A stretch of DNA of 20,000 nucleotides from Elsinoe ampelina (taxonomy: Eukaryota). The position numbers and the translations under genes were made by a program. The stretch's first letter is position 1. Each line of letters begins with the position of its first letter. The notes below the pieces were generated by a model. It saw nothing but the letters and a program-made list of their open reading frames with translations. It had not been told where the DNA came from and searched no databases. Of the stretch, positions 1 to 20,000 are shown piece by piece. The stretch spans positions 116,250-136,249 of the forward strand of contig ML992501.1 in the NCBI GenBank assembly GCA_010093995.1, in the 5' to 3' direction.

Positions 1-3286
<3,286 letters not shown>

Positions 3287-3639
3287 TGATCTGTATATAA
3301 TATCAAGAGCACAACTTGTGGTCGCTGTATTTCTAGGCTACCTCCGTCGTATGAATCAATGGCTTGATAGAATTCAATCATGATGTCCGAAATATGCTCA
3401 ATTTTGTTGACTTGTGTGTGGGGAGGAAAAAGGATTAATTACTGCCTAAACTACTAAAATGAGGTAGATTGTAACTACATAAATACTTAACCTAGTGTAC
3501 TAAAAGATAGCTAAATTAAAAGAACTCCTTAATAGCAACAGATTAAGACAATAATTATCTAATTTAATTATAAATTAGTAAAATAGTAAGATAGTGTTTA
3601 GTTTAGCCTTAGGATAAACTAAATTAGAGTCTTCTTAGC

Positions 3640-3845
3640 TAATGCGAGATAGATACGAACTAGATTTAGTTAGGATCTAGTTTAGATTAGTCACGTGATC
3701 TCGGCATTATAGCCCGGGCTTCCGGCCGCTCTGCCCTTAATATTACATGTGCTTTATATACTAGCTTTTCTTCTTCTTCTTCTAAGTCTTAATATCTTAA
3801 TAAATAGACATAATTAACCTCTTATCTTACTAGTTATAATTACTA
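3640..3845 (+). repeat. 5' LTR of element A
   Basis: Aligns without gaps to 16995-17200; by hand count 30 differences in 206 bp, all transitions. Ends TA...TA are compatible with RIP-mutated TG...CA. Confidence 0.92.
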
Positions 3846-3856
3846 TATCGAGACTT
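3846..3856 (+). promoter_or_regulatory. Primer-binding site of element A (probable self-priming type)
   Basis: TATCGAGACTT directly abuts the 5' LTR. Its reverse complement AAGTCTCGATA matches LTR 3784-3794 (AAGTCTTAATA) except for two RIP-type transitions. Confidence 0.65.
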
Positions 3857-3915
3857 TAAAACAACTATAACTAAGCAATAGAGCTATTAAATTATCTAGT
3901 TATTCTACTACTTAT

Positions 3916-5553
3916 ATAACTACTAATAACTACTACTTACGAAGAATTAAAGAATTAAAGAAGAAGCTATTATAACTATAGTTCCTATGTACACTATAAT
4001 AGATCCTTACTACTACTATATAGGTCAATACTATAAATCTTAAAGATATAAGAAGAAGATAATAAGTTAAGTTATAGATAACTCTTAAAGAAAGTAGGCT
4101 ACTAGCTAAAAATTTTAATATTCTCTTTATTATATATTAATGTTTTACACTGTTTTATTTACGACTAACTATACTAAGCATAGCTCGATCTAACTATAGC
4201 AACGAAGAGTACTACTAAAGTAAGCTACCTTAACCTATTCTTAATAATAATAATACTCTTATTTACTCTCTCTACTATAATCTTTTTGCCCTCTCTAATA
4301 CTATACTCCTTAAGAAGCTATAGAAAGAGTATAGTATATAGGCACTAAGAGACGTATTTAACTATATTAAGTCCTTCTATAATAAGTAAACTACATAGGT
4401 AAAAGGCGCTTATACTAATACTCTCTACTATTACTACGAGTTAGATACTACTTAGGCTTAGCTCGGCAACCTCTAATCCGAACTAGATATATCTTAGTTC
4501 TATGCCGATAGTATTACTACCTAAGCTACTCGCTACCTAGACAAAATCTAAGAGCTTAAGGCTAAGGTAAACTAACTAAGAAACAAGATAGAGTATAGTA
4601 TACTAGCCCTTTCTATACGTAGCTCTACCTTATTAGAAAAGATACTAGACTCTACTATCTTTAGTATAGGTATACTAGAGTAGTTCGAGGTCTTTAAGCA
4701 CTAGATAAGGAATAAGATATATATTAATATAGATTATTTCTCTATAAGAGATACCTAGTTTACCTATCTATACTTATGCCTCTCTAGAGAAGCCTATACC
4801 CTTATTATAGACTTAGCTAGTAATAACGTTATTAGCGTTAAAGAGGTCCTTACTCTCCTAGCCTAGCGCTTTAAGAATCCTAACTATAGGGCTACTATAT
4901 ATACTTAGTTTACTAACCTCTTCTAATGTAATAGTATATTTAACTCCTTTATTAGTAAGTTTAATAAGTACGCCCTTTACACTAAGATTGCTAAAGAGAA
5001 GTAGCTATACTAGATCTATTAGAAGATATCTAATAAGCTACGTAATGCTCTAGTTAACTATAACACTAATAACCTTACCGCCTTTATTACTAAGGCCTAC
5101 ACTACTAACTATAACATCTAATAGAATAACCTTATTACTAAGCGTACTTAGGCTTTACGTTCTATACTAGCTATAAGCTACGCCGCTACTATACCTACTT
5201 ATATACCTTATTTTACCTCTATACCTATAGCTTTACTTACCTTCTACTCTATTGCCGGAGGTGCTTTATAGCCTTTCTATCTAGCTCTAGTACTTACCTA
5301 TTACACATGTAGTAAGCCTAGATATATCTCTACTAAGTATATAGCTAGCGCCTTAGAGAAGGCTACTTATACTACTATACGCCCTATGCGTATTAGCGCT
5401 ATAAAAGAGATATAATAGCTCTAGAATTACTTAGCCGAATTAAGCAACTAAGTCGATACTAGTTCGGCTTATAAACTAGATCTAGTTTAGCCTTAGTTTA
5501 ACCCTAAAATAGATTATAAGTCTACTAACCTATCGGGCTAGAGAAATAAGTAG
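3916..5553 (+). pseudogene. gag of element A (RIP-degenerate; start uncertain, alternatives near 4171/4180)
   Basis: CCHC knuckle at 5299-5340 reads tat tac aca tgt agt aag cct aga tat atc tct act aag tat, i.e. (C)YTC(G)KP(G)(H)ISTK(C) after RIP reversal. The frame ends ...(Q)(G)N(E)* at TAG 5551-5553. Confidence 0.7.
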
Positions 5554-8363
5554 CTAGAGGATAAGTTCTATTCTCTAGTAGAATAAGAGCAATTCGAGAT
5601 AGATCTAGAGGTATATAGTTATTAAATAGCGTTATTAGCTACTACATCCCTACTATTATAACTCCTATTACTATTTACGACCCTTATAACTACTCTTATA
5701 CTATTACACTTTAAGCCTTTATCGATACTAGCGCGCTTATTAGCGCTATAGTTAATTATAACATTCTTAATAAGCTAAAGAGCTTTAGCTATCCTATAGC
5801 ACTAGCTAGTTCTATTTAGCTTTAAGCCTATAATAGTGTTCTAATAGAGTAAGTTATATATAGTATTCCCCTTACTACTACTGTTTCTAGTAAGCTAAAT
5901 AACCTTACTACCTTTTATATTATAGATATTAGCCGATTTAATATTATTCTTAGCCTTAGCTAGCTTAAGGCTAATAGAGCTACTATCGACTATAAGTATA
6001 GCCGAGTTATATATAAAGAAGAGTTTTCGCTAACAGTTGTTAAGTAGAAGCTACTATAGCTAATTAAAAGGCTAGAATCTAGATCTAAGCCTAGCTTAGA
6101 TCTAGGAATCTAGCTTAGTAAAGCCGCCGCCCTAGTTTAGAACTAGTTTAGTTCTAGTCTAACTCGTAAACTAAGTTCTAGCTTAGCTACTAAGTTAGGA
6201 CGAACTAGACTATATTAGCTACTAGCTCTTAAGTCGAACTTTAAGCTAAATTAGAGAGAGTTTAAGCTAATCTCCTATAGTACTTAGTTAATATATAAGT
6301 TCTCCTACGTACTTACCTACGTAAGTAACACTAAATAAGAAGAGCTAACTATTACCTTTATTAGTATAGCTGCCTTTATATTAGTAGCTAAATACTAAGA
6401 GAATAAGGTATTTATAATCTTAGTAAAGGATATTAAAGACTACTACTAGATAGCCTCTAAGCTAGAACTAGATTCTATAGTAGTTCTCCTAGAGGAGTTA
6501 TAGAAGTTTACTAATATCTTCTCTAAAGAATAATCTAATATACTTCCTTAGTATCGGCCGGATTTCGACAACTATATTATACTTAAAGATAGTACTAAGC
6601 TACTATATATAGAGCCTTTACGCTACCTATTACTATAAGAACTCGATATAGTAGAATAATTTATCTAAGAATATCTTAATAAAGGCTTTATTATACTAAG
6701 TTCCGCTAGCTATTCCTTACCTATTTTCTTTATTTATAAGCTAGATAGAGAACTTTATCTCTACGTTAACTACTATAGCCTTAATAAGGTAACTAAGTAA
6801 GACGTCTATCCTTTACCTCTTATTAAAGAAACACTTACGTGTATAAGTAAGGCTAAATAGTTTAGTAAGATTAATATCTATTAAGCCTTCTACTGCCTCT
6901 ATAACTCCGTCGATAGTAAAGATCTTACTATATTCTCTATACGCATAAGTAACTTTAAGTAGCTAGTAATACTATTCGGCCTTACTAACGCCTCTATAGT
7001 ATAGTAGAGGTTTATAAATTATAACTTTGTTAATATACTAGAGCGCTTCGTGTTAATCTACCTCGATAATATTCTTATTTATACTAATAGCTCTCGCTAA
7101 GAGTATGCTAAGTATATTAAGCTAGTACTCTAAAGACTCTACGAATTAAGCCTAAATACTAATATTAAGAAGAGCAAGTTCTACCTAATAGAGATAAAGT
7201 ATCTTAGTATTATTATTGGCCGAGATAGAGTTAAAATAGATCTAAAGAAGATAGAAGCTATATAAGTCTAGAAATAGCTAGCTTCTAGTAATACTACTTA
7301 GGTAAGAAGCTTTATTAGTTTCTATAGCTACTATCGCTACTTTATTAAGGGATTTAGTACTATTACTAAGCTACTAAACGATCTTCTTAAGAAGGACACT
7401 ACACTATAGAACAATAAGTATACTACTATATTTAACTATATAAAGTATACTATTATAAGTGTGCTTATCCTTACGTACTTTAATTACTTAAAGTAGATAG
7501 TCCTTAAGACTAACACCTCCGATACTACTACTACTAGAATTCTATTATAATATAATAAGTCTAACGTTCTCTAGCCTATTACCTTTCTTAGTAAATCTAT
7601 AAATAAAGCTAAATATAACTACGCTATCTATAACAAGAAACTACTAGTAATTGTCTAAGCCTTTAAAAAATAAGCCTCTAAGCTTATAAGTACTTAATCT
7701 AATAAGGCTATCTACGTTCTTACTAACTACTAGTCCTTAATATACTTTATAAAGACTTAGAAGCTATTACGCTACTAAGTGCACTAGGCTCTCTACCTTA
7801 TATAGTTTAACTTTAAGATTATATATAGGCCTAGCGCTACTAATAGCAAAGCTAACACGCTTATAAGGAGAAATAGAGACGTACTACGTTTAAAAGAAGA
7901 CCTTAATCTACGCTAGATACTACTACTATATAAGGTGCTAGATTAGCGTATTATTAACAAACTAAATCTAAGTCGTATCTAAACTAGATTACTAATCTAA
8001 GCTAAACTAAGATCTAGTTTAGTATCTAGTTTATAAACTAGTTTACTATCTAGTCTATTATCTATTTTACCTCCTATTTTGCTACCTATATCGGTGCCTA
8101 TTTCGGCTACTAAACTAGGCATCTATATAGTACCTATCTTAGCTATAGAAGAGCCTTTACTCCTTTTCGACGAAGTAGCTAAAGCTAACCTATAAGACCT
8201 TAATTTCGAGATAGTTTATAGTATCTACTATATAATAGAAGCCTTCCTAAAGAGGAAATAGCTACCGTCGACTAATATTACAATTAAAAAGGGAATACTA
8301 TAGGCTAATAGCCGACTAATTATGCCTTTCTCTATAGCTACGAAGGTTATCTAAGAAGTTTAT
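5541..8363 (+). pseudogene. pol of element A, 5' part: protease, reverse transcriptase, RNase H, start of integrase
   Basis: One frame throughout: AFIDT(G)A at 5715-5735, L(C)V(D)Y(R)(G)LN ~6760, (M)(P)FGLTNA ~6970, YLD(D)IL 7059, T(D)(A)S ~7509, IY(D)KELL ~7625, A(D)(A)L ~7851, KVI(Q)EV(H) up to 8363. Confidence 0.9.
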
Positions 8364-8561
8364 TATAATAAAGATAAGATATTAGAGCTAGAAAGACAAG
8401 TATATAGGAGTAGAATAGGTGTTATACTAGTATACCCTCGATTATTGTAAGACTAATCTCTACTCTATCTATTCTATAGGTAAGAAGTGTTTTATCCTTC
8501 TATAGAGAATAGTATCTCTAGAGTAAGCTAGCGTAGTATACTTACTACGTTAGTTCTTATA
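8364..8561 (-). repeat. 3' LTR of element B
   Basis: Direct repeat of 15457-15654, preceded on the - strand by AGAGGGAGAATAAT (PPT). Confidence 0.93.
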
Positions 8562-8575
8562 ATTATTCTCCCTCT
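8562..8575 (-). promoter_or_regulatory. Polypurine tract of element B
   Basis: The - strand reads AGAGGGAGAATAAT directly before the 3' LTR. Confidence 0.8.
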
Positions 8576-9217
8576 TCGAGAGGTATACTCTTACGCCTAT
8601 AAGCCTTAATAAAACCTAGAAAACCTAGTATAGGAGAAAACTAGAAAAGAGTATCTTACTAGTGCCTCTTAGGTATAGCGCACTCTTTACGCGTATAGCG
8701 TACCTATAGTAGCCTATACTATTCTTTATATACTAGATGTAGTAATAACAGTATAATTCTTTATATATAAAATATAGCGCTCTTATATTGTTATTTTTAT
8801 ATATAAGAATCTACCTATTATTATATACTACTACCTATTATTCTCTAGATTAGTCTTAGCTTAGAGCTAGATATATATTCTTCTCTTCTTCTTCTCTTCT
8901 TCTTTTCTTCTTTATAATACTTCCTTCGCGTAAGTATTCTACTTAATACTAGCTCTATACTTATATAAGTCTAATACTATACTAGTAATCTATTTTAGGT
9001 ACTATATAGTATAGACTAGGTCTTACTAGCCTAAGGGCTAGTAGAGGAGACTTAGTATATACGCTAAGCCTATACTACTATAGATCTAGCTATTAGGCTT
9101 GTCTATTTAGTTATTTATTTACTAACCTAGTATAGCACCTACGTAGCAATTTTTTTCCCTTTATTATTCTAGCTCTACGCTAGCTTACCTTCTATATACT
9201 TATATACTTTAATAACT

Positions 9218-10103
9218 ATAGCCCCTAAAGTTCCTAAGGAGTAAGTATTATATATAGTACTTACGCTACGCCGGCGCTAACCTTTTATAGACCTTATAAG
9301 AGCGATTTTACTAACTAGAACTAGTACTCTATACTATACTTATACTATACTATTGCTATCGATAAGCACCTCTAGCTTAAAGATAGTACACTTTCTATTA
9401 AGGATTCTCTCTACTAGATTACTAAGGCTAAGGCTACCTACTATAATCGTTATAGTTATAGTAATAAATACTACTACTAGGTATACTCTATACCTATACT
9501 ACGCCTACTTTATACTAACCTTAGTAGCCTACTAAGCTCGACTTTAAGAATTAAGTTACTACTAAGAAGCTCTAGGATAAATACTTTACTACGTATATGC
9601 TACTCTATAATAATACTACTACTCCTAAGAAGAATATTATTCTTCTAAAGCGCTAGATTACTACCTATACTAACTATATACGCGAGAAGGCTAGCGCTAA
9701 GCGTATATAGAGCAAGTCTAATGCTAAGGGCAAGAGTAAGGTAGTTAATAAGAGTAATAGTAATAGTATAACTTCTTTACGCTATAATAGCGCTATTACT
9801 ATACCCTTTACCTCTAAAGTTAATACTAAGTAGCTAGTAAAAGCGCTATGCCTAGGTATAATTAGTAATACTAGCTTTATACTTAAGGCTTTAGCTAATT
9901 ATATAAGTCTAGAAGTGTGCCTCTATAACGCTTAAGCTACGCTAACTTCCTTATAGGTAGTTACTAAGAATAAGTAAGCCGCTACTATATAGGTAATTAA
10001 TAACGCTATAAGGGCGCTAACTAGGTATATTAATAGTGTTAAGAAGAATAATAAGGATAAGACTAAGGTAGATAATATAGATAGTTAAGGTAGAGAGGGC
10101 TAG
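9218..10103 (+). pseudogene. Antisense, intron-containing accessory gene inside element B (exons 9218-9240, 9291-9480, 9528-~10103); unknown product, putatively Cys-rich N-terminus and acidic C-terminus
   Basis: Intron 1 (9241-9290) is GTAAGT...GCTAAC...TTTTATAG. Intron 2 (9481-9527) is GTATAC...TACTAAC...TAG. Removing both joins three different frames into one, starting ATA GCC CCT AAA (inferred ATG, MAPK...). Internal stops are all TAA/TAG, consistent with RIP of CAA/CAG/TGG. Confidence 0.75.
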
Positions 10104-10229
10104 GGCACTATATCTATACTATGCCCCCTTCGCTTTAGTATAATTCTATAGTTTTTGCTACGCTAGTGTTTTTTCTATATAAGCTAATAATACTCTAAGC
10201 TAACCTAGTACTACGCCTAGATACTCTTT

Positions 10230-13200
10230 ACTTTAAAATTTGTACCTTTAACTTATTAATTCTAAGTATGTCTAGAGTATTTAGCTAGCGCTATACTTAT
10301 ACTAAGCTACCTTATATTTATATAGTAATTCCTTAGCGTTTATAAGGTTTTTTACTAGCTCCTATATACTTTCTTCTATAGGGTAACTCTACTACTTTAC
10401 TAGGTAGTATAGCGCCTTTAGAGTGCTAGTATAGCTCTTGCCGAGGATATATTTAATAATATATTCTTCTTACTCTTCTACCTCTAGAGGTAGTAGGTAT
10501 ATACTCTTACTACATCTATATAGCTCTAGTAGCGTAACGTTAAAGACGTTATAGATTAGCTTTATTTTGTCTAGTAAGTATAGCTTATATACCTATATAC
10601 TAATTTGTTATATAATTATAAAGGGGCTAATATACTTAGCTAATAGCTTATAGCTAGGTCTAGCGCTATAAAGGTTCTTAGTGCTAAGTATAACCTCGTC
10701 GCTATTATAGAAGACTTTTACTTATTAACCTCTATTATAGACTAGTACTTAGTCTTTCTATACTTTATATAGGTGTCGGGTAAGCTCTATATACGTTTTA
10801 GTAATAGATTATACTTAGTTATTAACTAACGAGTTATACGCTAGCATGTAGCTAGGTAGTACTAGCGCCTTAATATTATTAAGTAGGCATATCTCCTACG
10901 TAAATAAGAACTATACTAGCGTAGCGTATAGTAACACTTAATATATGTTATTATACACGAATTACGCCTACTTAACCTAGTATAGCTAGTCTATCTAGTA
11001 ATAGTCGATAAAGTAGCGTAGGTACTACTCTAGCGTCTAGTTTTGCCTTTCGGTTTAGCTATCTATCTATAGATAGAAACTAGTACTAAGCTTATATTAC
11101 GCCTTCTAGCGCTAGTATAGCGCACTCTAGAATTTGCTTATAAAGATAGACTCTCTATCTAAGACTAGTGTCTTTAGCGTTCTAAATAATATTATAATAT
11201 CTATTTTAAATAGATTAGTAAAGTCTCTAGTATTAAGCTTAGTCGACGTTAGCGTATAGATACTAAACTTAGATAAGTAATAGATATATACGATAATCGC
11301 GTCTATAATAACGCTAGGCCGGAGCTCTACTAGGGGTAAGCTAGTAATAAAATTAAGCAACTAGTGTTATAAGGCCTTAAGTATAAGTAGGATTAGTAAG
11401 AGTTATAGGAGACTATAAGGCTTATACTATATTACCTTATGCCTTTAGTAGCTATCGTAGTGCTCGATATACACTTTCGTAGCGACGGATATACCTAGCT
11501 ACTAGTACTTTCTCCTTATATTAAGGTAGGTCTTTATATAGCTAAAGTAACTCCCTAAGGAGTTGTTATAATTATGCTATATAAGCTCTACTCTTAAGGT
11601 AGTTTCTTCTAGGATATATACCCTATCTCTATTCCGGAGTAAGCTATTACTAGATAGGCTCTACTTAGGGGTAGTACTATTACTAGTCGAGGTTCTCTCT
11701 TTTAGAAGTTTCTATTTCTTACTATAAGTAAAGGTGTCTCTTTACTATACTATATAGATAAGGTCCCGGAGCAATATAGAAGTAAAAGAGATATACGTAG
11801 TCTTATCTACTAGTACTTACGTAGCGTAGAGGCGTATAATCTACTAACTCTAGTCTAAAATTATAATAGGCTTCTTACTAGAGGTGTCCCGGAGTTATAT
11901 AGGTATTATACTATCTTTATGCCCTTAGCTCTCTATTATTTCCTAGGTAAGTAGTAGTATATCCTAGGATGCTAGAGTAGACATATATCGTTCTAATTTA
12001 ACATTGCTAGTTAGGCTTAGAGAGAGATTTATATAAGTACTTTCTAGGCGCTACTCTTCTTACTTTAGAGGCTCTAACTCTTCTTAGTATAGCTATAGCG
12101 CTCCTAAGGTAATAGGTAGACTTATAGGCGCTATTCTAGAGATATACTAGAATTGTATAAGCGCGTTATATTAGGGAGTAGTTTAAGGCACATAAGCTAT
12201 ACTAGCTTTATTACTATCTTCCTAGGCTCTACTAGCCTTAGGTTTCTTATCTATAATAGATATAGGTATAACTCCTTTACTTCGCGTTTATAATACTTTC
12301 TCTAAGAGAGAGACTAATATATAGTACTCTTCCTATATATCTTCTTTATACTTATAGTAGTTAGGCCTACGTAATAGGCTATTAGCTAGGTTAGTCTTTC
12401 TACTATAGTACTAGATAATAATATTAAACTATGCTAGTACCTCGGCGTAGCAGGCCTAGCGCTATAAAAGCTTCTTAGTAGTTAGGAAATACCTAAGGTT
12501 ATTATAGTTAGAAAGGACTTTAATTAGAGTAGTAGCGCTAAGTAGGTACTAGCGCTAGTACTATACTACTTCTATAATAGCGAGAAGCTCTTTATCGTAG
12601 GTAGTATAGTTTAGTTCTATACCTTATAGCTTCTAGGACTAGAACGCTATAGAGTACTAGTATTATATAGAGGTATTACTTTTGTTTTACTAGAAGATTA
12701 CTCTAGAGAGTATAAAATCTAAAGCGTTAGTCTCGAGCTAGAGAGGCTTACCTAATAAAAAGTAGCGTAGTATAGGCACTTATATAAAGGTAGCTTTAAG
12801 CCTATTAAAGGCCTATACTACGTTATTACTCTATAGAAATAGGCCTACTTACTTCCCTTAGACTAACTCTTACGTAAGTATAGTTAGTAGTAGCGCTATA
12901 TAGGAGAAGCTTTTAATAAATCAATAGTAGAAATTAGTAAATCCAAGAAAGGTTTATAACTTCTTAAGGCTAGTAGAGGTAGGCTAGTTAGCGACGGCTT
13001 ATACCCGGGGCTACTCTATCGCGACGCTATTACTACTAATAACATAGCTTAGGAATACTACCTATATTACCTTAAAGATATACTTCTTTAGTTTTATATA
13101 GAGGCTATTCTTACGTAGGTAGTCTAGTACGCTCCTAATAGCCTAGTAATACTCTTACTTATTACTAGCGTAGATTAGAATATTATCTAGGTACATAATA

Positions 13201-15419
13201 TAGTAGTAGTCTACTAAGCTACTTAAGTACTAATATATATAAGTCTAGAACGTAGCTAGGGCATTAGTAAGGCTAAAAGGTATAATAGTATATTTAAAGT
13301 AGCTATAGTAATAGTAGAACGCTATCTTCTATTTATCGCTATACTAGATATATACTCTATAGTAGGTATCTATAAGGTCTAGCTTACTAAATAAGTATAC
13401 GCCCTTAATATAATTAAGTATCTTAGCAATTAGGGGCAAGGAGTAATAGTTCTTAATAGTAACATTATTTAGCCTATAATAGTTAATATATAGGCGTAGT
13501 AAACTATCCTTCTTAGGAACAAATAAAATAGAAAACCCTATAGAGCTAGTACTATACTAGAGTTAACCTATCGCTAAGCTATTATCTATATACTCTTAAA
13601 GTACCTAAAGCTCCTTCTTACCAAGGGGGTAGATAGGTCCCTAGAGTAGCTATTTCCTCTCTTTAATATCGATAGAGTAAGTAAAATTGTTACTTAGTAG
13701 CGCTATTACTCTGCTCTTATTAAAAACGTCTATATAGTTATTAAGCTAGTATAGTAGAGTCGGGGCGCTAGGTTTGTCTCGGCGTATATATACTAGATAG
13801 AGCTAAGTATTAGGCTAATTTAGCTCCTAGAAGAAGAAGAGTATATCTAGGATCGACACCTATATAGCGCTAGTATAATGCCTCTATATACTAGCGCTCT
13901 ACTAAATCTTAGAGTCGTAGGACAATAGCTATAGTAGGCCTAATACAAGATTATAACTAGTTATATTAACGCTTTTAAACCGCTAGCGCGACGCCTACGT
14001 TATTCCCTTACTATTCTTAATAGTAAAGGCTAACTTAGTATATCTATAGATAGTTAATTCGTGTTTATCTAAGCCGCGTACCTAGTATACTACTAGAGAG
14101 TCGATAGTGATATAATAGCGTATAGTAAAATACTAGCTAATAAAGTTACTATCGGCGCTACTATCTATTAGAGCTACTTCTTCGATAGGGCCTTTAGGTA
14201 GGTTAACTATAATATCGGCACGAATTTAGTATATATTCTATATCGCGCTAGAGCTACTTAAGATTAGTAAATGTAAGGACACTATCCGTTTTAAAGAGTT
14301 TTTCTAGAGACAGTTTAGCACTTAATAGTCTAGGCTCTTATAGATGTTATAAGGGTAAGTAGCGCTAAGTTAAGGAGCTATAGAGGTAGTATTAGCGCTA
14401 CTCTACTAGTCCTTTTAGCCCTTATAGTCTTTATTATAGTAAGGCCTTTTAGTAAAAGTATTAGTCTTCTCTCTAGCGTTATACTTATACTACCCCTATA
14501 TAGAGTTAGAGTAGCCTAGTAGATTCTACTCTAAATAGGATAGATATACTAGAAGTTCTACCTTAATTAGAGGTAGATTCCCCTAACGGAGTACTTTCGA
14601 GTATAGCTCCGGCGTAGTATAGGTAATAAGCTATATATAGTAGGCATTGTTCGGGAGTAGCGCTATCTTAATATAGAACTCGTAACTATCGAGGAACATA
14701 TAGAAATTAGTAATTAACTATTCTCTACGCTAGTATAACGTAAAGAACTTTACTACGTAGCTATTACTATAGTTTTTAGAACTCTAGGCTTAGTCCTAAA
14801 GCTAGAACTATATTAGGCTCTATAAGGGTATAACGCTAGTGCTCTTAGCATATAAGTCCTAATTATAGCTAAGCTAACCTTTTAAGTAGCTAGTAGCTAT
14901 ATAGTACTAAGTAACTTCTTTAAAGTAGATATTTAGTACTATCTTAAAGACGTTATTATACGTGTATATAAATTCCTTAACTCTTACTATAATAGTAGAC
15001 TCTAAGGCCTTAGGGTAGCGTAAGTTTAGTATATACTCTCTTACGATTTGTAGGTTTATTAGGCAAATATTATTAGGTCGTACGTTGTTAAAACAACTAT
15101 ATAGCACTAGCGCTATAACTAGGGAGCAACTACTAAGTATATTCTTAAGCTAAGCGATATAAGTAAGAAGCGCTTTATATATAGTATTATTTCCTATGTC
15201 GGCTATACTTTCTATAGAAGCTATATTAGCGTAGTATAGTCTTAGCGCTAGCTCTTCCCCGGCCTAGCGATCTTTAATAGGAGTTATCTCTAGAGTTATA
15301 GCTAATTTAGTAAATGTCTTACTAATAGCTAAGCTATTAGAGAGTTATCTATACTAGTGCTACTCTAGCGGTAGTTAGTTATTTCGCTAGCGCTAAGTAT
15401 AGAGTACTATCTTGTCTAT
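10230..15419 (-). pseudogene. gag-pol polyprotein of element B (single frame, RIP-degenerate; ends approximate)
   Basis: All in one - frame: gag (ORF-track 14907..15107), knuckle (C)NI(C)KS(P)D(H)(W)xxNC 14310-14351, ALIDS(G)AD ~14150-14174, (M)PF(G)LTNA(P)ATF(Q) ~13250-13285, YLD(D)ILIY ~13190, LET(D)A(S)DF ~12725, DKELLAI ~12590, (D)FIT(G)LP ~11345, F(H)(P)(Q)(T)D(G)(Q)TE ~11065, YI(G)PF ~10630, chromodomain EYII(E)xIL...YLVK(W)(Q)(G)YPxEES(T)(W)E(P)xxNL 10343-10466. Confidence 0.9.
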
Positions 15420-15456
15420 ATAGCTCTATCTAATAGAATATAAGAGAGATTAGAAT

Positions 15457-15654
15457 TATAATAAAGATAGAATATTAGAGCTAGAAAGACAAGTATATAA
15501 GGGTAGAACAGGTATTATACTAGTATACTCTCGATTGTCGTAAGACTAATCTCTACTCTATCTATTCTATAGGCGAGGAGTGTTTTATTCTCCTATAGAG
15601 AATAGTATCTCTAGAGTAAGCTAGCGTAGCGTACTTACTATGTTAGTTCTTACA
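15457..15654 (-). repeat. 5' LTR of element B
   Basis: Starts TGTAAGAAC on the - strand; gap-free match to 8364-8561 with 18 differences by hand count, all transitions. Confidence 0.93.
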
Positions 15655-15659
15655 TTTAT

Positions 15660-16949
15660 ACATCGAAGAATTATATACACGTAGGAGCTACTAAGACGGC
15701 CGCTATAATAAAGTTTACTTTCTATATCCCTAGATGTAATAGTAACGTTAAGAGATTCGTCGCTAACTATTATAACTATAAGCGTTTAAAGGCTTATTAT
15801 AGTTTACTAGCCGGCCTCTTATCGCTATTACCTATTTTAGAAAGGCCTTAGTAATATATTACTATAGACTTCGTTACTAGCCTACCCTTAGTAGATAGCT
15901 ATAACGTAGTACTATATGTTATAGATTGCTTATCTAAGGAATAATACTTAATTTCTTACTTCTCTAGAGAAGAAGACACCTTAGCGTTTAAGACTACTAA
16001 GTTATTATTCTTCTATGTTTAGAGACTACACGGCCTACTAGATAGTATTACCTTCGACTATAGCCCTTAGTTCGTTAGCGACGTATAGAAAAGGCTCTAC
16101 TAAATTCTAAAGATTACTACTAAACTATCTACTATAGGGCACCTATAAATAGATAGCTAATTAGAGGTTATAAATTGTAAGTTTAAGTGAATTATTTATT
16201 TATATACTACACGTTTTAGCAATTAGACCCTTATTCTACTAGTAGTAAAGTTCTCTACTAATACTAGCCTATTAGAAAGTACTAAGCTATTACTATTTAA
16301 GGTTACTAGGGGATATAAGTCTAGACTAAGCTTCTAGCCCCCTTCTAATACACTATTAACAAGAGCTAAGCTAAATAAGGCCGACATTTACGCCCTTACT
16401 AAGCAACTAGAAGAAGTACTAGCTATTGCTAAGGCTAACCTCGCTATTGCCTAATTACGAATAGTAGAGTAAGCTAATAGACACCGCTAGCTAATAGAGT
16501 TTAAGGTAGGCGATTTAGTTTAGCTATTAATAAAGAACCTTTAGCTATAGAGTAATATAAAGCTACTACTAAAGTATATTAGTCCCTATAAGATCCTTAA
16601 GAAACAATTACTACTAGTATATAAGCTTAATCTACTAGCTATACTATAAAGTATCTACCTAGTATTCTACGCTAACCTTCTTACTAAGCACCTAAATAAC
16701 TCTCTACTAGGCTAAGCCTTTAATAAACTACCTCCGGTAGAAGTCGATAGTAAAGAGAAATACGAGGTAGACGATATAATTAATATATATATACTATAAG
16801 GGAAGCTAGTTACTTATATAAGCTAGAAGAGCTATCTAGAGAATCTTACCTAGTAGCTAATTAACAATCTTAAAGGAGTAGCTAACGTGCTATATAACTA
16901 TCTAGACCCTTATATAGATAAGCTAAGGCCGGAATAGATTAATAAATAA
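15660..16949 (+). pseudogene. pol of element A, 3' part: integrase (HHCC, DDE core, GPY/F) and chromodomain
   Basis: Continues in frame after removing element B and one TSD copy: H(A)GATKT...N(C)xx(C), IT(M)DFVT(G)LP 15858, IT(S)D(R)(G)P(Q)F ~16047, H(P)(Q)(T)D(G)(Q)(S)E ~16140, YI(G)PYKI ~16575, YEVDDII...S(W)K(G)Y(P)E(D)xT(W) 16761-16853. Confidence 0.9.
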
Positions 16950-16980
16950 TATATAATAGCGTTTAAGAGTAAATACACTT

Positions 16981-16994
16981 AAGAGAGAGAGTAG
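16981..16994 (+). promoter_or_regulatory. Polypurine tract of element A
   Basis: AAGAGAGAGAGTAG immediately precedes the 3' LTR. Confidence 0.8.
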
Positions 16995-17200
16995 TAATAT
17001 AAGATAGATACGAACTAGATTTAGTTAGGATCTAGTTTAGATTAGTTACGTAATCTTAGTATCGTAGCCTAGGCTTCTAGCTACTTCGCTCTCGATATTA
17101 CGTATGCTTTGTATACTAGCTTTTCTTCTTCTTCTTCTAAGTCTTAATATCTTAACGAATAGACGTAATTAACCTCTTATCTTACTAGTCGTAATTATTA
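16995..17200 (+). repeat. 3' LTR of element A
   Basis: Direct repeat of 3640-3845. Confidence 0.92.
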
Positions 17201-20000
17201 GTACTCTAGCTTATATCTTAGTTAATACACTTCTTTACTAAGTAGCTATAACTCTATAATAGCTAGTTAGTAGACTACTAACTCGAGGGATAGCTATTAT
17301 AAGAAGGTCTTATACCTCCTAGGTAGTAATAATTTAGTAAATCTATTAGCTAGTGTATCTACTAATAGTATCTATATAACTAAGATAGAACTAGATAGAT
17401 CTCTAGCTTAATTAATCTCTTGTTTTAGCTAATAATAATAAATATTAACATAGTAAAGATATATATTTAGCTTCTTAATTAGAGTAGTAATAAGACTAAT
17501 AGTTTACTAATTATTACACTAAATACTAATATATTTAAGGGGATAGATAGAGGCTATTAGCCTCCTCTACTATATAGCTTACTTAGTAGTCTCTATAAGA
17601 GTAAGTAGCTTAGTCTCTATAGTTAATATTATAACTATTAGTTACTTTATAGCCTTCTAGTTAATTAATCCTTAAAACATCTTAAAGAGATAGTCTTAAA
17701 GGCTCTTTCTTATTAGGTAGCTACTAAAGCTAGCATCTAATAAAGCTTAAAAGATTAGTAGTAGCATTAAGCTATTAAAGGTAAGAGCTAAATTCTTAGT
17801 TTTATAGAGATATTAGATTACTCTATTTACTATTCTCTAGTAAGTTAGTAATAGATTTATTAGATGCTCTAACAATCTAGAAGTAGCAAAGGCTATATTA
17901 GGCCTTATAATAACTACTATAAAGTTAATAGATTCTACCTTTTACTAATATAGGTAGATCTCTTATAGTAATACTTAGCCTTTATAAGGTTAGAGTATCT
18001 TAATTAGTAGTAGTATTAACACTAGCCTTATTAGTTCTATAATAAACTTACTATATATCTATTATATATACTAGGCTTAGCTAAGCTAGAGTCTCTTTAT
18101 TAGTCTATCCCTTATAACTTAGATAGCTAGAAACTAGCTTAGATCTTTAAGTATCTTTATCTTATATTTAGTATAGAGAGCTATAATAACAATATTAGCT
18201 TTCTTCTTATGCTTCTTAAGATATATAATAGTAATATTATCTACAAAGAAGAAAATTATTACTTTAGGTATTATCTAGAGGTATAGAGCCTTAGAGGCTT
18301 AAGTAAATCTAATACTCTTTAGAGTAGTAGTAAATTTAGTATACTAGAGAGCTAGGGCTTACTTTAGGCTATATAGTGCTTTATTAAGTAATAGAATTGC
18401 CTCTAATAGAGTAATACTAGAATAGTCCTTTATAAGATCCTCTACTACTAGCTTAAATCTAGTAGAGATAGTATAGTAGGTAGTCTTATTAATAGGACTA
18501 TTAATATAGGTATTAATAACATCTATCTAGATAGTTTCTATATCTTTATAAGTAAGTAATGCTATAAGTATTCTAAAGATCTTAGCTACTAGAGTTACTA
18601 TATAAGTCTTAGATTCTATTAATTAGAGATTATCTCTTATATAGACTTTTACTTTATACTTTATAATCTCTCCTTTATTATTAACTTTATAGATAAATAC
18701 CTATATTAAAGAGATAGGCTTACTAGTAGCTTAAGCTACTAGTATAATAGTCTATATATATCTTAAGTATAAAGTAAGTAATTTAACCTTTATAGCCTCT
18801 TAAAATTGCTTCTTATAAGAATAAGCCTTAAGTTCTTTAATATTAGCTAGTAGTAGTAGAAGATTGTCCCTTAATTCTAGCTTAGGCTAAGTTAGTATTA
18901 TTAATAGATAAGCATTAAAGGCTTAGTAATATCTAGGAGCCTTATTAGTTTATATAAGAGTAGTAATATATACTTACCTTCTTAGTTTTCTTATTCTTCT
19001 TATTATAAAAATATATTTAGAAAGAAAATTAGCTAACCTTATAGTAATTCTTTAAGGGGGTTACTTAGGCTAAGCTTTAACTACCTCTTTATTCTAAACT
19101 TCTATTTTATCTCCTTTAGCTTTATCTCCTCCTAGTAGTAGAGGAGATAGCTATACTACTATAGATAGTAGTAAGGCTAGAGTATTAAAGAACTATTTAT
19201 TTAGTAAAGATTCCTAGATCTAAGCTAGGTTTAGATCTAGAATAGCCTTATTTAATTAGTCTAATAGAGGTAGTAACTAATCTAGTATAACAGGGTAACT
19301 CTTATCTAGCTACTAAGATAGGCTTAGCCCTTAATCTAGATTACTCTAACTTAGAGTCTAAGATAGTATCTAGTTTAGCTACTAAACTAGATTCTAAACT
19401 AGATTCTAANNNNNNNNNNNNNNNNNNNNNNNNNNNNNNNNNNNNNNNNNNNNNNNNNNNNNNNNNNNNNNNNNNNNNNNNNNNNNNNNNNNNNNNNNNN
19501 NNNNNNNNNNNNNNNNNNNNNNNNNNNNNNNNNNNNNNNNNNNNNNNNNNNNNNNNNNNNNNNNNNNNNNNNNNNNNNNNNNNNNNNNNNNNNNTTCTAA
19601 TAACCTTCTTAGAGGCTAGTATAAAGATCCTAAAGATGTTAGTTAAGTTATAGCTAACTAAATAGCTAATATAAGCCCTTAGTATAAGCTTATTACTACT
19701 TATAATAAGCTTATCTAAAGTATAAGCTTTATATCTAAGTAGCTTAAGATAAGCAACTAATAGAGAGCATCTATAAACTAGCTTAAAAGGAGTCTTCTAG
19801 TCTAGCTTTTTAAGAGGTATTCTATTAATTAGATAGGCTACTAATCTATATAGTTTAGAGTATAATTCTCTTAGTAGATTAGTAAAGATAGTAATTGCCC
19901 TTACTCTCCTTAATAGTATAGCTTCTATTCTTTTATTATAACTATTCTAAGCTTAAGTATAAGGAGTAGATAGCTTATAATAGATTCCTTTACTATCTAG
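17201..20000 (-). mobile_element. Ty1/Copia LTR retrotransposon 'C' (RIP-inactivated, 3' half: integrase C-terminus, RT, RNase H, start of 3' LTR)
   Basis: On the - strand: S(A)PYT(Q)A(Q)N(G)xx(E)R and RA(H)I(G)YLV(G)Y(D)(S)TNIFRI (19595-20000, integrase); VFIYK...KYK(A)KV(C)(V)R(G)(D)L(Q) ~18620-18700; NKALY(G)LK(Q)A(P)AL(W)Y ~18340-18385; FFVD(D)I 18233-18250; C(D)N(Q)(Q)TI...(H)V(D)I(H)(H)(H)(W)LKQE...A(D)(G)FTK ~17335-17520. IN-RT-RH order is diagnostic of Copia. Confidence 0.9.
19410..19594. other. Assembly gap (185 N) in the integrase-RT linker of element C
   Basis: Run of N characters. Confidence 0.99.

Follow-up and report, generated by a model that had tools for sequence, protein, structure and literature searches.

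The window analysed here is a stretch of 20,000 nucleotides from contig ML992501.1 of Elsinoe ampelina, and its central feature is element B, a Ty3/gypsy chromovirus that lies on the minus strand, nested within a second element (A), and has been destroyed by repeat-induced point mutation (RIP). B is bounded by a 3′ long terminal repeat (LTR) of 205 bp at 8362-8566 and a 5′ LTR at 15455-15659, which together form a direct repeat of 90.7% identity; a target-site duplication was not recognisable. A polypurine tract, read from the sequence at about 8566-8578, abuts the 3′ LTR and reads GAAGAGGGAGAA on the minus strand. Gag-pol occupies a single RIP-riddled frame on the minus strand at 10305-15452, in which Pfam detected the reverse transcriptase (RVT_1, 1.2e-10), RNase H (RT_RNaseH, 5.1e-15) and the SH3 domain of integrase (SH3_Tf2-1, 5.7e-9). 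Its probable chromodomain at 10311-10463 was matched end to end by Pfam Chromo at 16.6 bits, below the cut-off of 25.1, and RIP erosion is the likely reason for this sub-threshold score. When read through RIP, the pol of B matched 43 proteins at E 1e-10 or better, most of them unnamed, the best being 39% identical and the closest named one coming from Monosporascus. Between pol and the 3′ LTR, positions 9291-10088 of the plus strand are best read as the RIP-dead remains of an accessory gene of family B, antisense to gag-pol and with at least one intron, a reading that we hold to be probable.

The earliest stop of the pol frame past the chromodomain is at 10302-10304, leaving a spacer of about 1.7 kb before the polypurine tract. 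In the host element A only about 100 bp separates the chromodomain-like end from the 3′ LTR, that is, A is without such a 3′ spacer. The extra sequence that an earlier note on this DNA had claimed between the chromodomain end and the polypurine tract of B is thus real. The dinucleotide frequencies of the spacer (TA 0.218, CA 0.005 and TG 0.008) carry the RIP signature, and the GC content of the RIPped DNA is about 0.30, compared with 0.52 in the flanking gene.

Coding imprint on the plus strand of the spacer

RIP converts CpA and TpG to TpA, and the codon phase of TA thereby keeps the old reading frame. Making use of this property, we took the known pol frames of A and B and tabulated the codons of RIPped coding DNA for each of the six relative phases; in cross-tests, windows of 190 codons were assigned correctly in 36 out of 40 cases. 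A second set of tables was trained on one host gene after RIP in silico, and was weaker for strand calls on pol (6/14 and 7/10 correct at 190 codons). The whole spacer was then scanned for maximal segments in all six frames, using 300 first-order shuffles as the null (95th percentile 10.9, maximum 17.2).

The top segment of the spacer in six frames was plus-strand frame 0 at 9528-10082, with a score of 29.2, above all 300 shuffles. For 9528-10103, the plus strand was preferred over the minus frame with the same codon boundaries by 14.0 nats with the pol-trained tables and by 42.5 nats with the host-trained tables; for true-sense windows of pol, the same strand margin ranged from -2.8 to +17.2 nats. 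Since the strand calls of the host-trained tables on pol were poor, the margin of 42.5 nats is weaker evidence than that of 14.0. Across 9617-10066, 57-73% of the TA dinucleotides fall in one codon phase, as against about 45% (3|1 boundary) in true pol. The signal stops at about 10080, and because nothing is detected past about 10085 or before about 9290, the TAA at 10086-10088 is the likely stop and 8579-9217 is taken as non-coding; in the latter part no frame of either strand rose above the shuffle null. We therefore delimit this coding block, block 2, as 186 codons plus the likely stop at 9528-10088, where the earlier note had ended it at 10103. The gap at 10104-10301, across which the antisense gene and pol converge, is without consistent codon phase.

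Upstream of block 2, a different TA phase is dominant in 9167-9466. The second segment of the scan, plus-strand frame 1 at 9118-9537, scored 12.6 against the null 95th percentile of 10.9 and is borderline; the cumulative log-odds curve places its actual signal at 9301-9450. The corresponding block 1 (9291-9480, 63 codons from 9292) is read in the frame that was best in both classifiers. With block 2 well above the null and favoured on the plus strand by both sets of tables, and block 1 at the borderline, these results support the earlier claim of a relic coding region antisense to gag-pol.

In the earlier note, this region had been described as a three-exon gene of about 260 codons, interrupted by stops of RIP origin; its three pieces join to 789 nt or 263 codons. 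The joined frame does contain 16 stops, all of them TAA or TAG (the RIP products of CAA, CAG and TGG), at a density of 6.1%, below the 7-9% in the true pol frame of B. As a means of telling frames apart, stop counts are not decisive because the competing frames are about equally open: 9528-10103 has 11 stops in the plus frame and 11 and 12 in two minus frames, and within 9291-9480 another plus frame has none.

Introns, start and candidate cysteine triad

Both intron-like sets of strings quoted in the earlier note are present, GTAAGT / GCTAAC / TATAG at 9241-9290 (50 nt) and GTATAC / TACTAAC / TAG at 9481-9527 (47 nt). Of the proposed three-exon gene, the second intron, 9481-9527, is a probable one, for which an acceptor at 9524 would be equally frame-compatible. 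The switch of frame between blocks 1 and 2 is located between 9450-9480 and 9528-9540, and the length of 9481-9527 fits this switch. Diverged copies of B list no indels within 8574-10600, indicating that the frame switch is ancestral rather than a private frameshift. Intron 2 gains weight from the position of the switch, the fitting length, the lack of indels among copies and the presence of an intron at a comparable place in relatives.

The proposed exon 1 of 23 nt at 9218-9240 (ATA GCC CCT ...) is unsupported, the classifier being flat there, and intron 1 is a candidate on its strings; no coding signal was found by the classifier in 9211-9300, which leaves exon 1 and intron 1 without support either way. 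Position 9218, where the earlier note puts an ATG after reversal of RIP, reads ATA today; ATG to ATA is reachable by canonical RIP, and this ATA is flanked by A at -3 and G at +4. A further ATA at 9250, in frame and inside the proposed intron 1, provides an alternative start that would give a two-exon gene. The three-exon model is accordingly not established, and a two-exon gene is equally likely. In the RIPped DNA analysed here, strict strings of the GTAAGT type occur at 0.29 and RIP-tolerant ones at 1.31 per kb per strand. The strict strings in the RIPped DNA of 3500-19200 number 8 on the plus strand and 1 on the minus strand.

The peptide that the earlier note had offered as de-RIPped, including its acidic tail, turned out to be one option among many. 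Under canonical reversal of RIP, 153 out of 249 codons admit two or more pre-RIP residues, 45 of the 58 K/N codons of the frame could equally have been E/D, and the stretch KGKGK is unreachable, one S remaining S.

In the frame of the earlier note, block 1 terminates in ...YYNRYSYSNKYYY*. It contains the peptide YNRYSYSNKYY at 9442-9474 on the plus strand, two codons before intron 2, and since RIP turns the Cys codon TGY into the Tyr codon TAY, its tyrosine triad is compatible with an original C-x2-C-x6-C. The RIP-tolerant form of this pattern was found 13 times in 31,398 codons of RIPped DNA, giving 0.026 expected in the 63 codons of block 1, and 9442-9474 is its sole plus-strand match in the spacer. 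The Zn(2)Cys(6) domain PF00172 has the spacing C-x2-C-x6-C-x5..12-C-x2-C-x6..8-C. In B we found one RIP-tolerant triad at most and not this six-cysteine spacing, and a search of every frame gave no PF00172 match with an E value of 0.01 or better. A look-alike of a second triad, lying in another frame, was rejected for its two internal stops and its conflict with the classifier.

Copies of B, un-RIPped relatives and neighbouring elements

In one DNA run, 1295 contig pieces of at least 80% identity cover all 30 bins of 8300-10600, comprising the spacer, the end of pol and the LTR alike. This run may be the sample of the assembly itself, so that the pieces would represent many copies within one genome rather than an independent confirmation, and contig depth is not copy number. 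The copies differ in this interval at 169 sites, all of them transitions, without joints, and indels are listed only at 8565 and 8573. Given that diverged copies cover all bins without joints or indels in the segment, the spacer segment belongs to family B as a whole and is not a one-off transduction. The spacer also carries a (TTC)n pyrimidine tract at 8878-8912, at which contigs of the run appear to be cut.

For comparison with un-RIPped elements, we fetched 79 metagenome loci with an alignment of eight pol relatives. The loci are distant from B, with about 27% identity over the integrase-chromodomain region. Many of them have 0.8-1.9 kb from the pol stop to the 3′ LTR, with open reading frames (ORFs) antisense to pol. 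In the 45 loci where 400 nt or more follow pol, the triad C-x2-C-x6-C was found in that DNA 28 times on the antisense strand (in 16 loci) and twice on the sense strand, and its density on the antisense strand downstream of pol was 3.21 per 10 kb, compared with 1.17 for the same strand within the pol body. On the sense strand of the pol body the triad occurred 2 times, against 18 on the opposite strand. Antisense genes between pol and the 3′ LTR with one or two triads, which a short canonical intron often splits, all on the minus strand of their locus, are located at L001:4625-5766, L006:9271-10018, L007:4057-4812, L030:7212-7769, L051:4464-5021, L052:5377-5982, L069:6063-7012, L070:5256-5606 and L075:6152-6394. 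Such genes occur in at least six mutually dissimilar lineages, and their products contain the triad or triads followed by basic, helical and charged regions.

The arrangement of the triads differs among lineages. L051 and L052 carry their two triads in a single frame, at a Zn2Cys6-like spacing. A GTAAGT or GTGAGT string stands 4-6 codons after the first triad in L001, the L006 group (7 loci) and L070/L075, and a second triad lies in another frame beyond a short intron in L001, in six of the seven L006-group loci (not L025) and in L070; L075 has lost it. Within the L006 group, the median ratio of nonsynonymous to synonymous substitution rates (dN/dS) of the antisense frame was 0.21 for exon 1 and 0.17 for exon 2, as against 0.74-1.22 in the remaining frames of the same strand, and indels were multiples of 3 in 10 out of 11 cases in exon 1 but mostly not in the intron. 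These conserved introns, together with the dN/dS of about 0.2, agree with the reasoning of the earlier note that introns persist only in an antisense gene, which we find sound. At the splice donor in the L006 group, the intron begins with A instead of G, at a CpG, in four of the seven copies (L020, L025, L026 and L037); with this G to A change and scattered stops, several copies of the group are decaying genomic copies and not active ones.

Pfam PF00172 matched two of the relatives below its threshold of 21 bits (L030 with 16.3 and L051 with 13.3 bits). For the L052-type protein (L052:5377-5949, minus strand), 173 of 482 candidates proved to be relatives at E 0.001 or better. Those designated P0044-P0163 are about 190-200 amino acids long and share six invariant cysteines and a conserved long helix. 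Many are encoded on contigs of 6-7 kb. Annotation calls most of them hypothetical and gives a few an unrelated automatic name, for example 'galactokinase'; UniRef lists one as a 'Zn(2)-C6 fungal-type domain-containing protein'. The L052-type proteins are probably retrotransposon genes mistaken for host genes. The AlphaFold2 (AF2) model of the L052-type protein (pLDDT 80) consists of a small Cys-rich domain followed by a single helix at 65-146, and 14 of the 19 Foldseek matches shown for it are Zn(2)Cys(6) transcription factors. An Atlas search with exon 2 of L001 returned generic coiled-coil entries only. We take the designation Zn2Cys6-like for the products of the relatives as a lead, not as an established membership.

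As to the surroundings of B, the window contains two nested LTR pairs. Element A, a RIPped Ty3/gypsy element of the plus strand with LTRs at 3640-3845 and 16995-17200, was interrupted within its integrase when B inserted; no Pfam match was obtained for its chromodomain. To the left, an SMC/Rad50-like ORF (AAA_23) at 2-2845, an intact host gene of normal GC content encoding 947 amino acids, is truncated by the window start. It adjoins the RIPped block, the GC content falling from 0.51 to 0.28 over about 500 bp (3000-3500), and RIP-type DNA with about 30% GC extends to the right from about 3500. Within 17200-20000, a RIPped copia-type reverse transcriptase (RVT_2, 2.5e-8) was detected on the minus strand, and a run of N is present at about 19245-19450.

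Interpretation and comparison with known systems

On the reading that we prefer, 9291-10088 of the plus strand would be what RIP has left of an accessory gene of family B, placed between pol and the 3′ LTR and antisense to gag-pol. Blocks 1 and 2 would be joined by splicing out 9481-9527, and transcription may have started from a promoter of its own, with a 5′ untranslated region, within 8579-9217, to run convergently with pol. The intron would persist because the genomic RNA of the element is the opposite strand, in which it would never be spliced. By analogy with the intact antisense genes of the relatives, the gene most likely encoded a small nuclear protein that bound nucleic acid and regulated transcription or silencing of the element itself, predicted to comprise a cysteine triad, then a K/N(E/D)-rich stretch and then a helical region. 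In the present copy the gene is dead, every part of it having been inactivated by RIP. No RNA evidence for it turned up; three runs with the same species label, guessed to be RNA, yielded no matching pieces, an outcome that speaks neither for nor against expression.

Several observations weigh against such a gene, and those on sequence homology are the most extensive. None of 171 word-search candidates was a homolog of the plus-frame block at E 0.01 or better, an exhaustive HMMER search with the same block gave no match among 1.84 billion representatives, and Pfam gave none in the spacer when all six frames of 8567-15454 were searched. The comparison with the relatives was likewise negative: tblastn of every spacer frame against the 79 related loci reached E 0.39 at best, which is noise; phmmer scores of 13 antisense peptides of the relatives against six frames of the RIPped window were all negative; and the L052-family hidden Markov model gave no match in the same six frames. 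The classifier tables derive from pol and one host gene only, and the strand margin of block 1 for the plus strand is just 1.4-3.0 nats. Intron-like strings are frequent, with six RIP-tolerant ones on the plus strand of this spacer, and the 5′ splice string GTATAC is non-consensus as read today; its A at position 5 follows T, so that a former G there could be hidden. Each Y of the triad could have been C, H, R or Y, no second Cys triad was found after the intron in the frame of block 2, and the intron of the relatives is in phase 2, that of B in phase 0. Finally, part of the strand asymmetry of the triads among the relatives is compositional, because the pol body, too, has 18 matches on its antisense strand, in 16 loci; these latter are probably compositional, or one conserved site in the reverse frame.

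Other explanations of the spacer were weighed against the same data. The gene could lie on the plus strand with another structure, either two exons starting inside the proposed intron 1 (for example at ATA 9250) or two separate unspliced ORFs. This is possible, if doubtful: 9211-9300 lacks coding signal, the genes of the relatives have two exons with a single intron after the Cys triad, and strict intron-like strings arise by chance at the rate given above, yet the GTAAGT, GCTAAC and YAG signals of intron 1 are perfect and typically spaced, and ATA 9218 lies in the context of A at -3 and G at +4. A relic on the minus strand, such as a C-terminal extension of pol or a third sense ORF, is highly unlikely. 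The codon boundaries and TA phase of block 2 do coincide with the pol frame, the minus frame with the same boundaries has equally few stops (11/192), and TA phase cannot tell the strands apart; against this stand the classifier margins of 14.0 and 42.5 nats for plus, the score of the minus pol-frame segment (10.1, below the null 95th percentile of 10.9), the stretch of about 200 nt without phase between block 2 and the chromodomain, and the sense-strand frameshift that block 1 would require.

A passenger origin, in which an ancestor of family B captured in reverse a fragment of some host gene, intron included, that plays no role for the element, appears unlikely, even though the codon-phase lock of block 2 is stronger than that of pol itself and its better fit to the host-trained table (42.5 vs 14.0 nats) suggests host-like codon usage. 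One study recognises capture as an origin of some additional ORFs (aORFs) of retrotransposons and describes transduced genes as present in one or a few copies (PMC7264820), whereas many diverged copies of B cover the segment. Moreover, neither a host homolog nor any other was found among the 171 candidates and the 1.84 billion representatives, and relatives carry selected genes at the same place. That there was no gene at all, the periodicity being a by-product of composition or repeats, is scarcely credible: RIPped DNA is of low complexity and many of its frames look half-open, but the score of 29.2 exceeds all 300 first-order shuffles, no tandem array that could be the source of the periodicity was found in the spacer, and the rest of the spacer is without such signal.

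An accessory gene of family B thus remains our preferred reading, and it would fit into a wider one that we put forward as tentative. Several fungal chromovirus lineages might encode a small Gal4-like regulator in an intron-bearing gene antisense to pol, B being a RIP-killed divergent member and the L052-type proteins being retrotransposon genes. Such a regulator would combine a zinc-cluster-type Cys domain with a long helix for dimerisation and with a charged tail, and would drive or protect transcription of the element. If these genes do specify DNA-binding regulators carried by the element, fungal retrotransposons would govern their own expression as complex retroviruses do with antisense genes, and many small fungal proteins now called 'hypothetical' or 'Zn(2)-C6' would have to be re-annotated as transposon genes. 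Little is understood of the accessory genes of LTR retrotransposons. The present case shows that a coding imprint is recoverable from fully RIPped DNA via the codon phase of RIP-made TA, and the imprint of B led to intact relatives with a spliced antisense gene under purifying selection at the same place. It also serves as a warning for annotation, as gene finders call such genes host genes or miss them in RIPped regions.

The brtn gene of Boty-like elements in Botrytis cinerea was reportedly described by Zhao et al. in 2011 (Virology 417:248). In two reports, brtn is an antisense additional gene of these Ty3/gypsy elements (PMC8365987, PMC4227169); as is probable for B, the additional gene runs opposite to gag-pol in a fungal Ty3/gypsy element that has a chromodomain, the likeness being one of description only. 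Antisense accessory genes are a known kind, to which the plant aORFs and retroviral antisense genes also belong (PMC7264820, PMC11963269). According to the same two papers, the plant aORFs (gene23 of maize Grande, those of rice RIRE2, and the TRP28 ORFs of Retand in Silene and other plants) lie between pol and the 3′ LTR, in the same position and orientation as in B, and are present in most copies of a family. They are suspected of a nuclear or DNA-binding regulatory role, and for Grande an own promoter has been demonstrated (PMC7264820, PMC11963269). They differ from B in belonging to plant non-chromovirus lineages and, as described there, in their much longer spacers (2.9-6.6 kb in Retand); their TRP28 domain (PF04195) was not found by Pfam in the six frames of B. 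The word 'intron' is absent from the main texts of both papers.

Full-text searches of an open-access library gave no description of cysteine-cluster, intron-bearing antisense genes in fungal retrotransposons, and brtn was the only accessory gene of fungal LTR retrotransposons that turned up. The closest counterparts of B are the antisense genes of the metagenome chromoviruses (L001, the L006 group, L030, L051/L034, L052/L009, L069 and L070/L075), which are likewise antisense and located between pol and the 3′ LTR. Unlike the RIP-dead B, these genes are intact or almost intact, and there is no detectable sequence similarity between them and B; most of them have two triads with Zn2Cys6-like spacing, B one at most. 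In those with a short fungal-type intron, it follows a few codons after C-x2-C-x6-C, and the triad and intron of B are compatible with this arrangement if its tyrosines were formerly cysteines. By this analogy B appears to resemble the antisense genes of the relatives in place, orientation, intron placement and general layout, its triad being compatible, while its membership among them is not established. The Zn(2)Cys(6) binuclear-cluster transcription factors include Gal4, Ppr1, Put3, Hap1 and Leu3. The relatives are like these factors in having six cysteines in the order C-x2-C-x6-C-x8..11-C-x2-C-x6-C followed by a long helix, the latter as predicted in the AF2 model of the L052-type protein.

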